DNA of 46,712 nucleotides. Origin: Chiloscyllium plagiosum. Lineage: Eukaryota. Numbering within the stretch: the stretch's first letter is position 1; each line of letters begins with the position of its first letter. The stretch covers positions 9,650,985-9,697,696 of the forward strand of contig NC_057718.1 in NCBI RefSeq assembly GCF_004010195.1, read 5' to 3'. The notes under the pieces were generated by a model, which did not search any database, was not told the origin of the DNA, and worked only from the letters and a program-made list of their open reading frames with translations. Both the position numbers and the translations under genes were made by a program. Positions 731 to 46,712 of the stretch are shown here, piece by piece.

Positions 731-795
731 TGGGGTGAAAATGTCTTGCTGGAACAGCGCAGTAGATCAGGCAGCATCCAGGGAACAGGAGAATT

Positions 796-823
796 GACGT
801 TTCGAGCATAAGCCCTTCTTCAG
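796..823 (-). ncRNA. Minimal hammerhead ribozyme motif
   Basis: Reverse strand: CTGAAGA A GGGC TTAT GCTC GAAA CGTC = CUGANGA box, 4-bp stem II (one G.U), GAAA box, palindromic ACGU stem III, GUC cleavage triplet. Confidence 0.7.
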
Positions 824-853
824 GAATGAGGAGAGTGTCCTCATTCCTCATTC

Positions 854-881
854 CTGAAGAAAGGCTCATGCCCGAAACGTC
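854..881 (+). ncRNA. Minimal hammerhead ribozyme motif (sense to REPS1)
   Basis: CTGAAGA A AGGC TCAT GCCC GAAA CGTC; core boxes intact, but the first stem II pair is an A-C mismatch, which should impair activity. Confidence 0.62.
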
Positions 882-894
882 GATTCTCCTGTTC

Positions 895-2244: not shown

Positions 2245-3550
2245 ATTGATGAAGTGTGGCGCTGGAAAAAGCACTGCAGGTCAGGCAGCTTCTGAGGAGC
2301 AAAAGAGTCGACAGTTCTGGCATGACCCTTCTTCAGGACTGGGAAAGGGGGCTGAGAAATAAGTAGAGGTTGGGGTGGGGCTAGGGTAAAGGTAGGTGGG
2401 ATGGCAATAGATGGGCAAAGGTAGGTGGTGGTGGTGATAGGTCAGCGGGAAGTATGGAGCAGATAGGTGGGAAGGCAAATGGATAGGTAATTCAGGCCAA
2501 GAGTGCAGAGCTGAGTCAGAGATTGGATCAGGGATAGGGTGGGAGGAGAGGAGATCTGGAAACTGCCCTGTGATATAGACTCATTAGGCAGAAGATGAGC
2601 TGTTTCTCCTCTAGTTTGCGGGTGGTCTTGTGTGGGCAGTGGAGGAGGCCCAGAATAGACATGCCTTCAGGTGAGGGGTGGTTGAAGTGGATGGCCACAG
2701 GAAGATGGGGTTGGTTCTTGAATATGGACCAGAGATGTTCCTGAACTGTTCTGCCACTTTGCGCTTGGTCTCTCCGCTGTAGAGACCACATCGAGAGCAA
2801 TGGATGCAGTAAATGAGGTTCAGGATTATACAAGTAAATGTCTGCTGGATTAGGAATGATCCTTTGGAGCCTTGGTCTGAGGTGAGTGGGGGAGGTGTGG
2901 ACGTGAGTTTTATATCTCTGACTGCAGCAGGGGAAGGTGCCAGGTGTGGGGAGTGTGGACCCAATGAGGGAGTCATGGAGGTGCAGATAGGGTTGGGGAG
3001 GGAAATATATTTTTGGTGGTGGGGTCTGACTCTAGATGGTGAAAATGGCAGATGATGTGCTGAGATTGGTGGGGTGGAATGCCAAGACCGGGGGATGCTA
3101 TCCTTGTTGGGTGCTATTCTTGTTGGGGTTGGGTGGGGAGGGTGTGTCTGGTTCGAGGGCAGAGGTGTGGGAAATAGAGGTGACATAATTGAAGGCACTT
3201 TTGATCACAGGGAAGGGGAATCCTGATGATCCTTGAAGTAGGAGGACATCTGGGATGTCATGGAGTGTGCTCGCTAAACCTGATCACAGATAAGGCTGAG
3301 CAATTGAGAGTAGGGGATCACATTTTTGTGGGTTGGAGGGGATAGGGATGATAGATGGAAGAGAGGGATAGAGGAAGGACCGTAGATAAGGTAGCTGTGG
3401 GAGTCTGTAGGTTTGCAGTAAATGTCAGTTGTTGCCGAGAGCCCCAGGAAGGGGAAGGAAGTGTCGGAGATGCACTTGGGGAATTTTAGGTCAGGATGGA
3501 AGGTGTTGGTGTGGTGAATGAACTGTTCAAACTCCTCTGGAGAACGAGGC
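2245..3550 (-). mobile_element. Penelope-like retroelement, 5'-truncated and frameshifted (RT C-terminus + GIY-YIG endonuclease + terminal repeat)
   Basis: Fragments EEFEQFIHHTNTFHPDLKF...FPFL...TDIYCKPTDSHSYL...IPYSQ (RT thumb); FTC..NLIYCIHCSRCGLYSGETKRKVAEQFR...PVAIHFN...RKLEEKQLIF (GIY-YIG); terminal repeat at 2245-2340. Confidence 0.85.
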
Positions 3551-4253
3551 AATACTGATACAGTTATCAACAATTGTACCGGAGGAAAATGTGAATTCAG
3601 AAATTCTAATTCACACAACACTTTAAACACTATTTGCAATACCAACCATGGCCCATTTAAGATACACTTTTTTTTGTTTGGTAGAACTGTAACTCTCCAT
3701 AAGAGATCCATGCAAACATTGACGTGCCTTGCAGTAATGGTAACTGTGTCAATATGAATCAGAAACTTTGAAGGTAGTAGGTTCCTGTTTAACTCCTCAA
3801 TTTTTACATTCTTTCCCTAGTATCCAGGTTCATCTCATTTAACCTCAGCCTGCCCCAAATGGATTTTTCTCTTTGCTCTCAAGTATGGTTACCATTTAGC
3901 CTTGTATTAGAAAGGTCTTTATGAAATGCTTCATGTTCTGCACCTTGGTTGCTTGCTAAGAGAATTGTGGAATGGAGCATGACCATGTTGATTCCAATGC
4001 CTGCACCCATACCTGGCATGCTAGCAAGCAGACAAAACTTGGCAAGTTGCCTCATTTGGAAAGTTTGAATAGAGTTGCCGAATCTTGGAATCAGTTCTTG
4101 ACTCCTAAATGAAAGGCCATGTGACCCCTGGGACCAATTGTGATCTTTATCAGTCTTTCTGCATAGTTTGAGGCATGTTTGTGAGAAAACTTCTGGCTTT
4201 TTATTCTGGTGGACTGGATAGCCTTTTCTAGACTTTGGGCTGAATTCTGACTG

Positions 4254-4464
4254 GGAGAAAGTGAGGACTGGAGATCAGAGCTGAAAATGTGTTGCTGGAA
4301 AAGCCCAGCAGGTCAGGCAGCATCCAAGGAGCAGGAGAATCGACATTTCTGGCAGGAATCTGAAGATTCCTGAAGAAGGGCTCATGCCCGAAAAGTCGAT
4401 TCGCCTGCTCATTGGATGCTGCCTGACCTGCTGCGCTTTTCCAGCAGCACATTTTCAGCTCTGA
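4254..4464. mobile_element. Penelope-derived fold-back element, family A
   Basis: Inverted arms from tcagagctgaaaatgtg (4275) to cacattttcagctctga (4464); + strand hammerhead-like motif 4370-4397 CTGAAGA A GGGC TCAT GCCC GAAA AGTC. Confidence 0.8.
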
Positions 4465-4830: not shown

Positions 4831-5208
4831 CTCATAGTCTTCAGTCTTGTGAAGCAAGCTTCTCACCTGAACGCCTTCCACTAACAATTCCATTTGAAAT
4901 GGTTTTAAGTCTGCAGACCGTCGGAGCTGATCACCAGACTGAAATCCAGGATGTGATTTGATATTGAGTAAATGCTATTGGTCAAAGGCCAAATCTGTTT
5001 TAGTCATTATATTATGTCAACCTCGTACAAATGTAGGCACGGAAGTAATCCAATTTGTCCCTCTGGTGTTGAATCCATCAATTTTATATTTGGTATTGTA
5101 TGAAGAAGAATTTTGGTGTGTGTGGACCAGTTCAGGGCTGGAACCTGATGCTGTTAAATTAATTGCATATTCCAGGAATTCACATGGGCTGGTGACCTAG
5201 TGACTTAT

Positions 5209-5416
5209 GTGGTAAAAACAATGACTGCAGATGCTGGAAACCAGATTCTGGATTAGTGGTGCTGGAAGAGCACAGCAGTTCAGGCAGCATCCGAGGAGCA
5301 GTAAAATCGACGTTTCGGGCAAAAGTCAAATGAAGGGCTTTTGCCCGAAACGCGATTTTACTGCTCCTCGAATGCTGCCTGAACTGCTGTGCTCTTCCAG
5401 CACCACTAATCCAGAA
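5209..5416. mobile_element. Penelope-derived fold-back element with 13-bp target-site duplication
   Basis: Inverted arms 5246-5416; cctagtgacttat at 5196-5208 and 5417-5429; left part near-identical to 46583-46697. Confidence 0.85.
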
Positions 5417-5691
5417 CCTAGTGACTTATTAGTTACCAAATAAAATATCAATTCTAAATCTGACTAGACCCTTCATTTTGTTCTGAATCCTCTGGGTGTT
5501 TTTATTTTTTTAGCCATTGCAGCATCTGTCAGTTTGGAGTGGCAGTATGACCTTTTGACTAAATTGCTTAGGCATGGTTATAAAGGACTAAAGGGGTAAA
5601 TAAATTGAAAGGAGTAGCGAGAATGATGGGCAATTTCATTAGTTCATTGCTGAATCTAGATGCTAAGCATTTAAATGGTGTAGAGAGACAC

Positions 5692-5941: not shown

Positions 5942-39615
<33,674 letters not shown>

Positions 39616-43289: not shown

Positions 43290-46200
43290 CATTATTAAAG
43301 GGGCAGAGATGGCAGTCAGTGGAGTGGTGTGGATCTCCTATCAGATGTAGGAGATCAGGGAGCAGTCAACTGTCCCGAGTGACTATGTCTGCAGGAAGTG
43401 TGCCTGGCTGTAGCTCCTCTTGGACTGCACAGAGTGGTTGGAGCAGAAAGTGGACACTAGCAAGCAAACAGGAGGCTGGGTGTGTGATAACAGCTTGAGG
43501 GAGGTGGCCACATCACAGAGGCAGTCAGGTAGATGGGTGACTGCCAGGAGAGGTAGGCAGGTAATGCAGGAGTCTCCTGTGGCTATGTCTCTCTCAAACA
43601 AGTATACTGTTTTGGATACAGCTGGGGGAGGGATAGCCTTTTGAAGAAAATTGCAGAAGCAGCAGCCAGGCCTTTGACACCACAGGTGGCTCTGCTGTAA
43701 AGCAGGGTGTGGCAAAGTCCAAGCGAGCAATTGTGATGGGAATTCTCTAGGGGCACAAACAGGCACTCCTGCCGCAAATGAAACTTCAGGATGGTATGTT
43801 GCCTCCCTGGTGCCAGGGTTAAGGATATCGTGGAGTGGTTGCGGTAAATTCTGAGGGCGAGTGAGCAGCCAGAGACCATTGTGCACATTGGTACCAACAA
43901 CGTCGGTATAAAAAGGGATGAGGTTCTGAAAGTGAACATAGAGTGTTAGGCAGGAGGTTAAAAAACTAGACCTCAAGGATTGTAGTCTCTGAACTACTCC
44001 CAGTACCACGTGCTAGTGAGAACAGGAATTGGAGAATAGGGCTGATGAATGCATGGACCCAAGAGATGGAACAGGAGTTCAGATTTTTTTGATCATTGGG
44101 ATCTTTTCTGGGGCTGAAGTGATCTGTACAAGAGGGATGTGTTGCACCTGACCTGGAGAGGGACCAATATCCTGGGGTGAAGATTTGCTAGAGCTATGCA
44201 GGGTTTGACCTGGTCTGGCAGGGAAGTGGGACACTGAGCAGTAGTGAATCAAAAGAAAGTTGAGGCAGGCTGCAGAAGTTAGAGAGTAAGTTAAATAGAT
44301 TCAACAGAGAAATGAGAAAAGACTGATTTGCATTGAAATAAATGCATTTTAATTAGAGGCTGGACAAGTAAGGCAGGTGCTCCCTTCCATGCTCTGAGTT
44401 CACGAGACTGGGATATCATAGTGATTACAGAAACACAGCTGAGGGTGGGACAGGACTGGCAGCCCAATGATGCTCCAGTAAGGAAAGAGGAAGGGGAGTG
44501 ATGAGGGAAAACATCATGGCATACTTCAGATATTCCTGGAGGGTCATCCAGTGAAGCTAACTGGGTGCAACTGAACAATATGGGGGTGATCACTTTGGGA
44601 TTGTACAATGGGCACCCCAAATAATTGGGTTGTAATATTAGATTAGATTCCCTACAATATGGAAACAGGCCCTTCGGCCCAACAAGTCCACCCAGACCCA
44701 TTCCCCTGTCCTATATTTACCCCTGACTAATGCACCTTAACGTTATGGACAATTTAGCATAGCCAATCCACCCTAACCTGCACATCTTTGGATTGTGAGA
44801 GGAAACAGGAACACCCGGAGGGGACCCGCAGACACTGGGAAAATGTGCAAACTCCACACAGGTAGTTGCCAGAGGTTGGAATCGAACCTAGGTCCCTGAT
44901 GCTGTGAGGCAGCAGTGCCAACCAAAGAGCCACCGTGCTCTCCACAGGGGGCACATCCCCATAGGGGATTTTAACTTTCCAAATATAAACTGGGACTGGC
45001 ACAGGGTTCAAGGCTTGGATGGGGATGAGTTTAAGTATGTTCAAGAAAACTTTCTTGATCTATATGTAGATGGCCGTACTGGAGAAGGGGCCAAACTTGG
45101 CCTCTTGGGAAACATGGCAGGGCAGGTGACTGAGGTATTAAATGGAGCAGCACTTTGGGACCAGTGACCATAATTCTATCGGTTTTAAAATCCTTGTGGT
45201 AAAGGATAGGCATGGTCCACAAGTTGAAGTTCTAAATTGGGCAGGCCAATTTTGATGGTATTCGACAGGAACTTGTGGACGTTCACAGGTAAAGGGATCC
45301 CTGTAAGTGAGAGGTTTTCAAAAGCAAGGTAATGACACTTTAAGGACAGCATGTTCCTGTTAGTATGAAGGGCAAGGCTGGAAGGAATAGGGAACACTGG
45401 ACAGCTAGTGATATTCATGCTCTGGTCAAGAAAAAGGAGAAGGCATATGTCTGGTATAGGCAGCTGGATCAAATGAATCTCTTCAGGAGTATACGGGCTG
45501 TAGGAATACACTTGAAAGGGGGGGGAAAGGGCAAAAAAGGTTCATGAGATAGCTTTGGCAGATAGTTATAGAATCCAAAGAGATTCTACAAGTACACTAA
45601 GGGTAAAATAGTTACTAAGGAGCAAATAGGGCCCCTTAAAGATCAATGACATCTGTCTGGAACCACGCGATGGGATACTAAACAAATATTTTGCATCAAT
45701 TTTTACTGTGGAGAAAGAAATGGAGGCTAGGGAACTTGGAAATTGAATAAATGAGTAGATCAAGTGTATCCCAGGACATTGTGGGAAGTTAGAGAAGAAA
45801 TTGTGGAGCCTCTAGCAGTGATGTTTGTATCATCTGCCACTGGTGAGGTGCCGGAGGACTGGAGGTTGGCTGATGTACCATCATTTAAGAGAGGCTGTTT
45901 TTAAAAAAATAAAAGCCAGGATGCTATAGACTGGTGAGTCTGATGTCAGTGGTGGGTAAGTTATTGGAGGGGTTTCTGAGAGGCAGGATCTACGTGCATT
46001 TGGAGAGGCAAGTACTGATTAGGCACAGTCAGCATAGTTTTGTGCGTGGGAAATACTGTCTCTCAAATTTGAGTTGTTTTGAAGAGGTGACCAAGAAGAT
46101 AGATGAATGTAGAGCGGTAGACATTGTCTGCATAGTCTTCAGCAAGGCCTTCAACAAGATTCGGTGCGATAGACAGGTTGGTAAGGTTAGATCACATGGG

Positions 46201-46290
46201 ATCCAGGGAGAGCTAGCCAATTGTATACAAACTTGGTTTGATGGTAAGAGACAAGGATTGTTGCTCAGACTGTAGGCCTATGACCATGGT
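43290..46290 (+). mobile_element. CR1-clade LINE (ORF1 + ORF2 to mid-RT), decayed, 3'-truncated, interrupted by a SINE
   Basis: DYVCRKC, VAMSLSNKYTVL, MVCCLPGARVKD, VHIGTNNV (ORF1); DFNFPNINW, SDHN, KYCLSNL..FEEVTK, FSKAFNKI (ORF2); collinear with 12235-14660. Confidence 0.9.
44637..44940 (-). mobile_element. HE1-type V-SINE nested in CR1 ORF2
   Basis: Same structure as 9125-9443 (GGTTCGATTCC B box, TGTGTGGAGTTTGCAC core, (AATCT)n tail). Confidence 0.9.
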
Positions 46291-46467
46291 CTGCTGTAAA
46301 AGTTGGGTCATTTTTACATTGCTATGCATGGTGAAATCTGTATTTTTTTAACAACTTAAAGATTTTAAGTCTCAAAAGTGCTTTGGGAGGTCATGCAGGC
46401 ATAATGGGCGCTATAGTAAATGAGTCTTTTTATTCAAGCATAGTAATTGCAAACTGACTGAGTTCCT

Positions 46468-46712
46468 AGTCGAGGTGGGAGGTGAGGTCGTGATCAAGGG
46501 GGCAGTAGGAGGAGGTGTCTGCGAGTTGGCACCTGGCTTCAGGGATGTAGAGGTCAGTGCGCCAGACTACTACTGCCCACCGAGGTAAAAACAATGACTG
46601 CAGATGCTGGAAACCAGATTCTGGATCAGTGGTGCTGGAAGAGCACAGCAATTCAGGCAGCATCCGTGGACAGGCAAAATCGATGTTTCGGGCAAAAACC
46701 CTTCATCAGGAA
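46468..46712 (-). mobile_element. Penelope-like element pieces: RT N-terminal fragment (46468-46582) abutting a terminal repeat (46583-end)
   Basis: AVVVWRTDLYIPEARCQLADTSSYCPLDHD resembles the DKG-adjacent Penelope RT segment; terminal repeat matches 5211-5325. Confidence 0.75.
46682..46709 (-). ncRNA. Minimal hammerhead ribozyme motif
   Basis: Reverse strand CTGATGA A GGGT TTTT GCCC GAAA CATC; core boxes and stem II intact, AUC triplet, stem III palindrome lost by a CpG-type change. Confidence 0.62.

Follow-up and report, generated by a model that had tools for sequence, protein, structure and literature searches.

Insertions of Penelope-like elements (PLEs) have been described in which the element is accompanied by an inverted, 5′-truncated copy and an optional tail of 30–40 bp (PMC8557442, PMC3846280). 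Dual minimal hammerhead ribozymes, located on opposite strands 100–700 bp apart, were tied to truncated PLEs in 2014, and the minimal PLE hammerheads were reported there not to cleave as monomers and to cleave at a low level as dimers (PMC4209133). For an Anolis element, the protein is described as cutting and extending both strands in vitro with no need for homology; two internal starts of reverse transcription bound the tail, and the template needs RNA beyond the tail (PMC11167929). According to the same source, the Anolis hammerhead requires the protein of the element and is dispensable for insertion. The non-LTR retrozymes represent a further related system. They are described as head-to-tail tandems with mostly canonical hammerheads that can yield circles (PMC7229834; bioRxiv 10.64898/2026.07.22.740005).

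The stretch of DNA analysed here, referred to as the window, comprises 46,712 nucleotides of the shark Chiloscyllium plagiosum (contig NC_057718.1) and is repeat-rich, CpG-poor vertebrate DNA. A preliminary description had pointed to a short fold-back at 733–894 with two back-to-back hammerhead ribozymes. We propose that 733–894 is a dead-on-arrival insertion of a Neptune-type PLE, whose inverted truncated ends were made at insertion, and we assign this reading a probability of roughly 0.8.

Results

The two ribozymes had been described as minimal type I hammerheads of PLEs, and both cores were found as they had been located. The minus-strand core (823–796) consists of CUGAAGA, an extra A, a 4-bp stem II with one G-U pair, GAAA and CGUC, and has an ACGU palindrome. 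The plus-strand core (854–881) has the same layout of CUGAAGA, extra A, 4-bp stem II, GAAA and CGUC, its first stem II pair being A-C (862). The predicted cut sites lie after 881 on the plus strand and after 796 on the minus strand. The core boxes, the extra base after A9 and the palindromic 15.1-16.1 are present in both arms of 733–894. The inverted arms proposed for the element are also real: 783–832 and 845–894 are complementary at 46 of 50 positions, and the region 720–910 folds with z = −11.2, with equally stable folds in none of 200 shuffles.

A full minimal-hammerhead descriptor gave three matches in the whole window (823−, 854+ and 27405+) against a mean of 0.035 over 200 Markov resamples, none of which reached two or more; this descriptor was composed after the motif was known, and the two arms represent one duplication, so that the matches are not independent. 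The loose core pattern was weak, with four matches against 0.94 expected, a number reached by 3 of 100 shuffles. Rfam returned six matches over the whole window, all under the gathering score and none of them a hammerhead. A lone CTGATGA...GAAAC match at 11805–11828 (−) has no relative in the window, was missed by the full descriptor and is probably a chance occurrence.

The origin of the arms is indicated by a broken, 5′-truncated coding PLE at 2252–3561 (−), 1.4 kb from 733–894, which contains the end of the reverse transcriptase (RT), a Cys linker, a GIY-YIG domain and the 3′ UTR. A related terminus, its hammerhead at 2336 decayed, forms the end of the fragment; this terminus (2252–2345, −) aligns to the left arm of 733–894 across 89 columns. 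Pfam matched none of the three open frames of the coding fragment, and its identity comes from homologues. The protein P0003 matched it in tblastn searches with E-values of 2e-38 and 2e-21, covering the RT end, Cys linker and GIY-YIG. In Pfam, P0003 shows RVT_1 and GIY-YIG, both under the curated cut-offs, and P0001 shows RVT_1 above the cut-off. The nearest named relatives of the window PLE frame are Chiloscyllium punctatum proteins, 53–55% identical (two of five matches). P0003 has the motif CxxxxCxxC before GIY-YIG, which is decayed in the window. A Cys linker is given as a Neptune feature in PMC8557442 and suggests the Neptune clade for the coding relative. The coding copy belongs to a sister subfamily with an identity of about three quarters and is not the parent of 733–894, and the tie of the A1 subfamily of 733–894 to a coding PLE is only indirect, through contigs that continue past 838 as loose ends. 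Judged by sequence, the arms of 733–894 appear to be the termini of a Neptune-type PLE. The earlier proposal that a PLE reverse transcriptase put them in place is supported by the related terminus at the end of a fragment coding for RT and GIY-YIG.

The window had been said to hold about eight such termini in two families, four of them as fold-backs, and all of these were counted. The eight loci belong to family A (starting at 733, 2252, 4253, 5209 and 46584) and family B (124, 6928 and 27280). One of the eight ends a coding PLE fragment, and four are fold-backs in which an inverted 5′-truncated copy adjoins a pLTR. The sister fold-back at 4253–4460 (family A1) has a tail on the left arm only; its right core is present and its left core is deleted. 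A possible 13-bp target duplication with two mismatches at this locus is not significant (15% of null pairs scored at least as high). The fold-back at 5209–5415 (family A2) has a tail of about 38 nt on the left arm only, no complete core, and a perfect 14-bp target duplication (5195–5208 and 5416–5429; 0 of 1000 null pairs). The family B fold-back at 27280–27480 contains one core (27405, +), a 42–46-nt tail confined to the left arm and a 12-bp AT-rich target duplication (27268–27279 and 27481–27492), which was matched by 0 of 1000 null pairs and consists of low-complexity sequence. A one-sided tail is present in all three intact fold-backs, with lengths of 38, 42–46 and 22–26 nt, the last with an internal deletion. 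Target duplication is clear in two of the four fold-backs, weak in one and absent at 733–894. Of the four fold-backs only 733–894 has two complete cores; 4253–4460 and 27280–27480 have one each, and 5209–5415 has none. A cap-G reading of the centre of 4253–4460 was rejected, as it is not unique and a core stutter also explains the sequence.

The other termini comprise a family A2 terminus with a tail and a core at 46709 (46584–46712, −), cut by the window edge, and two family B solo stubs with decayed cores, one with a tail (124–248, −) and one without (6928–7013, −), the latter starting 3–4 nt before C3. Directly after the A2 tail at 46584 lies a PLE RT fragment (46454–46576, −; 68% to residues 211–251 of P0001, E 2.5e-10), which represents either a nested insertion or an internally deleted tandem. 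No tandem sense hammerhead pair was found at any of the eight window loci. A metagenome scan gave no match to the family A core pattern; the one match to the family B pattern, 21–24 nt in an unrelated contig (L001), was taken as chance. A near-perfect palindrome at 37506–37640 (135 bp, 66-bp arms, 97%, 3-nt loop) is unrelated to families A and B and showed neither a hammerhead descriptor match nor a clear target duplication.

Among the variants listed from other copies, the core varies only at N7, in loop II, at the CpG and at the sites private to 733–894. In an automatic alignment of seven copies, in which families A and B are out of register, 63 of 500 shuffles gave stem covariation as high as the observed one. 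When the few, decayed copies are put in register by hand, both stems (I and II) and the palindrome (ACGU and AGCU) have different sequences in families A and B, and the pairing is mostly kept.

The two arms of 733–894 are not equal. The left arm, a 5′-truncated PLE terminus of family A1 (736–838, −; outer edge 732–736), begins 15 nt before the hammerhead C3 and stops at the short, tail-less outer end. The family extends past 736 into the tail in 272 RNA reads. Longer relatives match to 838 in three DNA runs (40, 42 and 50 contigs) and leave the match at this point, as their sequence goes on into the upstream part of the family itself. The junction (839–844) consists of six added bases and forms a 7-nt tandem stutter, 838–844 being identical to 845–851; by public contig depth it is near-private to this copy. 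The right arm, a second truncated terminus (845–894, +), begins 9 nt before C3. The family continues beyond 894, with 88–117 loose ends at 891 in each of four runs and an agreement of 0.68–0.81. The right arm was cut off at 894 by a later deletion, probably through 7 nt in common with the flank (888–894), as suggested by one contig of organism B, which matches 888–1248 only from 888 onward, its first 149 letters being foreign to that piece. An insertion common to organism B was considered and dropped, as the contig matches only from 888, which fits the 7-nt common stretch. No target duplication was found at the ends of 733–894; the best repeat, 9 bp at 694/908, lies off both ends. Of the element described earlier, the inverted arms and the outward-facing cores stand, but it is a remnant with unequal arms and a missing right end.

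Both motifs of this copy are mutated. Position 862 is G in 95–98% of the other copies in all four runs, where 733–894 has A-C, and position 805 is G in 91–96%. Position 795 is C in 71% and 73% (organism A) and 47% (organism B) of contig depth and in 91% of RNA reads. As the majority letters of the other copies differ, the plus motif is seen to lack the G10.1-C11.1 pair, replaced by A-C, and the minus motif the closing pair of its already short helix I, which is C-A instead of C-G (795); most other copies keep each of these pairs. The G10.1-C11.1 pair is described as highly conserved (PMC4209133).

The left flank (480–731, −) is a LINE 3′ fragment that hosts the insertion of the PLE stub and shares 61% over 248 nt with a LINE end of the window at 15285–15523 (E 4.5e-9). 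The right flank was tried as a LINE ORF1 region and rejected, the likeness being by eye only and not significant. Two long broken LINE copies at 12244–15623 and 43786–46233 (+) are about 70% alike, with RVT_1 in each.

Among 136 frames, the only match above the Pfam cut-off was an EH domain (E 3.2e-7) in an exon frame at 20216–20380 (+). The host gene, which we take to be REPS1, has likely exons at 6797–6891, 11954–12073 and 20222–20373 (+), based on splice-site context and the translation at 11950. Neither Atlas nor Pfam gave a match to the 33-aa frame at 6795. The exon at 6797 has an acceptor site, and for this reason the fold-back at 733–894 is probably intronic in the EH-domain gene. The family B stub at 6928–7013 lies about 35 bp after exon 6797–6891. 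Broken LTR-type RNase H fragments occur at 7534–8161 (−; Pfam E 3.6e-9 and 0.022), and the adjacent 7171–7249 matches, in inverted orientation, 9132–9205 and 44637–44698. A perfect 65-bp direct duplication is found at 28379–28443 and 28506–28570, 127 bp apart.

The preliminary description had suggested that the antisense arm could switch off cleavage within a host pre-mRNA. The first part of this idea agrees with the folding model: forcing the hammerhead fold is computed to cost 48 kcal/mol in the plus read-through transcript and 59 kcal/mol in the minus one, the computed pairing probability of stem II is 0 in both, and the 50-bp hairpin of the read-through RNA is predicted to exclude the ribozyme fold. 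On either strand, transcription reaches the antisense arm first, and thus the hammerhead fold would always be off. Each strand contains one sense motif, and therefore no dimer can form in cis. With the antisense arm first, no dimer in cis and both motifs mutated, a regulatory switch at 733–894 is unlikely, and the likely effect in a pre-mRNA would be that of an inert 50-bp hairpin.

In one polyA single-cell RNA run, about 2% of which was read, 1,239 of 12,955,460 reads matched and none did so at an identity of at least 99%. No locus-specific RNA was found in one polyA library, the depth being zero in 17 of 17 bins over 909–1248, and no piles of read starts or ends marking cleavage were found in one polyA library. 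In the RNA run X21, reads of other family A copies are abundant across 729–888 in either direction, with depths of about 600 and 290 at 769–788, and 61 reads carry a fold-back junction at 827.

Four of 24 public runs (two contig sets of organism A, one of organism B and one RNA run) were compared with 649–1248 at 85% likeness, and 20,544 contigs matched in run X1. In this run the depth is about 3.4 million in the arms and 11.8 on the unique flank, a ratio of about 290,000 that is not a copy number. In the three DNA runs the depth at 838 is 764, 264 and 401 against 3.3–4.0 million at 819, that is 0.023%, 0.007% and 0.010%. At other loci 149 different joints were found, the commonest of the 15 listed occurring in 18 of the 20,544 X1 contigs, and the junctions of all four window fold-backs differ. 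The joints cluster within about 25 bases around the hammerhead and are not randomly spread. Among the 15 of 149 joints listed, the longer arm ends at 823–827 (0–4 nt upstream of C3) in 68 of 75 X1 contigs, and the other arm begins inside stem II (862–870) in nearly all of the X1 contigs, so that within this set a single complete hammerhead is usual. Hairpins break assembled contigs, and common centres may be under-reported; near-symmetric centres can align as gaps rather than joints, and a few such pieces are among those listed. Solo stubs with unrelated flanks are common in the public contigs.

Neither a fixed internal junction nor equal terminal inverted repeats common to the copies were found in the window and the public contigs. 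The fold-back is not a fixed family, and its varied but clustered junctions fit formation at each insertion. Random inversion points had been named earlier as the mark of ordinary inverted 5′ truncations. The number of joints and the four different window junctions agree with such an origin, but the clustering near the hammerhead shows that the points are not random.

Discussion

We propose the following course for the insertion. The PLE protein would nick both target strands, a step for which two-strand priming by the Anolis PLE in vitro serves as the model, and reverse transcription would start at two points within the PLE RNA that lie some 90 and 125 nt downstream of the hammerhead core. 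The two cDNAs would each stop just past the hammerhead, presumably by run-off at the 5′ end of the RNA. Joining of the truncated cDNA ends head to head would leave the terminus present twice, facing outward, with the tail on only one of the copies, and the whole would lie inside a target duplication. The PLE origin and the unequal arms are observed at 733–894, and the tail and the target duplication in its sister copies. The hairpin would be made anew at each insertion and would not itself be re-copied; the unshared junction is an observation, and the lack of re-mobilisation is our inference. The copy at 733–894 would afterwards have lost its right end and acquired the mutations seen in both ribozymes. 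The mechanism is borrowed from an element of the Poseidon clade. The fold-back product would be unable to move again because the downstream RNA is missing, an argument that reaches across clades. Against the proposed insertion, the clustered joints could also come from several small fold-back masters, and 733–894 itself has no target duplication.

The second strand may have been made in another way, a single cDNA folding back and priming its own second strand in place of two target-primed cDNAs. Self-priming has been proposed for PLE inversions (PMC3846280), and the listed joints (15 of 149), with one whole core and the other arm beginning at 862–870, have the form that a loop requires. However, 0–1 bases are in common at 11 of the 15 X1 joints listed, the tail-less end at which the second arm stops agrees with a second RT start rather than with the terminus of a copied cDNA, and in 733–894 and 4253–4460 both arms reach upstream of the core position. 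We regard self-priming as somewhat unlikely.

A different template is less probable still. It would be a short, linear, non-autonomous PLE derivative, a retrozyme- or SINE-like master, with the fold-back again built at insertion. Depth, 3.3 million in the core, is down to 0.64 million 8 nt upstream and to less than 800 at 15 nt, so that upstream sequence is retained in hardly any copies. In vertebrates, one cartilaginous fish among them, tandem retrozymes derived from PLEs are also described (bioRxiv 10.64898/2026.07.22.740005). The fall in depth is, however, partly caused by subfamilies with other upstream sequence. Furthermore, 40–50 contigs per DNA run enter a stretch rich in pyrimidines, which looks by eye like the coding copy's 3′ UTR, and the window contains no tandem units.

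The preliminary description had suggested a possible non-autonomous class of ribozyme-bearing elements, and under this reading the fold-back would be transcribed and inserted again as one unit by PLE proteins. The very high abundance of the arms, the similar size of the copies and their clustered junctions would suit such a class, as would joints found in up to 18 contigs (15 of 149 listed) and in both organisms. This reading is contradicted by four different centres in the four window copies, only one of which has two cores, by a centre depth of 0.007–0.023% of that of the arms, and by the 149 joints and the many solo stubs. In addition, the copies end at the tail, without the downstream RNA that the Anolis protein is reported to need (PMC11167929). 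We consider re-insertion as a unit very improbable. A MITE or a DNA-level inverted duplication that merely resembles a hammerhead would account for the hairpin shape and the target duplications, but is largely refuted by the homology to the end of a coding PLE, by the unequal ends with a tail on one side, and by a core kept across families A and B while the stems differ, and is hardly credible.

Under the proposed insertion with ends made anew, the place where both cDNAs stop deserves attention. The 5′ ends of the copies pile up 3–4 nt before C3, those of the 733–894 arms lying at 9 and 15 nt. Among the 24 loose-end entries listed, with 748 further entries beyond these, solo copies start at 850 in 110 and 147 contigs and 109 RNA reads, and at 851 in 92, 81 and 85 contigs; the flanks of these starts are unrelated (agreement 0.32–0.48). 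The motif TCATTCC at 848–854 (+), with A at 850, 4 nt before C3, presumably fits the initiator consensus, which is met at 1.3% of the window positions. The motif is also the 5′ strand of stem I, and its mirror site lies at 823–829 in the minus arm. An internal promoter lacking a TATA box is described for Penelope of D. virilis (PMC2377424).

We offer as a tentative and rather doubtful reading that the PLE mRNA starts at the A850 initiator and that RT, starting about 95 and 130 nt inside, runs off the capped end, the stubs being 'strong-stop' products. Completion of a full-length copy would require a jump to an RNA 3′ end; solo stubs would be single failed jumps and fold-backs double ones. Possible support comes from the 850/851 pile-up, the unrelated flanks, the consensus letter before 850, which is G in X1 and X10 (possibly a cap copy) and T in X21, and the 7-nt stutters at two window junctions. 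Against it, the 733–894 arms begin 9 and 15 nt upstream, and family B by eye has no such initiator. Position 850 also lies at the 5′ edge of helix I, where stalling would produce the same picture. If the run-off reading is true, the very large shark stub population gives the start of the RNA and the two RT starts at single-base resolution, and one LTR-like strand transfer explains both pseudo-LTRs and inverted ends. In the openly accessible papers searched, none was found on shark PLE fold-back stubs or on initiator run-off, and the families may already be catalogued, for example in Repbase or Dfam.

As a locus, 733–894 matters little, being an old mutated stub in a probable intron. The population could matter for the question of how PLEs build pseudo-LTRs and inverted ends, and the sharply clustered 5′ ends represent a testable, base-level record of failed insertions. 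Shark PLE hairpins are very many and can pass for MITEs, microRNA precursors or ribozyme switches; the Rfam hairpin matches in the window were all sub-threshold.

Comparison with known systems

The non-LTR retrozymes (PMC7229834; bioRxiv 10.64898/2026.07.22.740005) are described as non-coding, PLE-related and equipped with a type I hammerhead, and in this they resemble the copies studied here. In contrast to the retrozymes, the motifs of 733–894 are minimal and located on opposite strands, and cannot release a unit. The Anolis Poseidon element PAc (Frangieh et al. 2024, PMC11167929) is similar in that its terminus passes the hammerhead to two ends that bound the tail, and in that the hammerhead is retained in genomic copies, as expected with an uncut RNA template. 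It differs in that the coding relative here looks Neptune-type by the Cys linker of P0003, and no ORF start was located in the termini. The minimal metazoan PLE hammerheads of Cervera and De la Pena (2014, PMC4209133) share the CUGANGA and GAAA boxes and the extra base 9/10.1, as well as the G10.1-C11.1 pair of the family, the palindromic 15.2-16.2 and the lack of helix III. Compared with that description, the two cores of 733–894 are only 31 bp apart, with a helix II of 4–5 bp and a helix I of 2–4 bp, and both are mutated.

The closest correspondence is to the inverted pLTR insertions with a tail that are described for Penelope/Poseidon, Neptune and Nematis (PMC8557442, PMC3846280). These share the head-to-head truncated termini with a terminal hammerhead, and sister copies in the window share the one-arm tail of 30–46 nt and the target duplication of 12–14 bp. 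The copies studied here are distinguished by arms of only about 100–140 nt with no ORF between them, by their very high abundance and by 5′ ends clustered at the hammerhead. Taken by its sequence pattern, 733–894 thus appears to be an already known kind of structure, an inverted-pLTR insertion of the published pattern, and not a new self-copying element.
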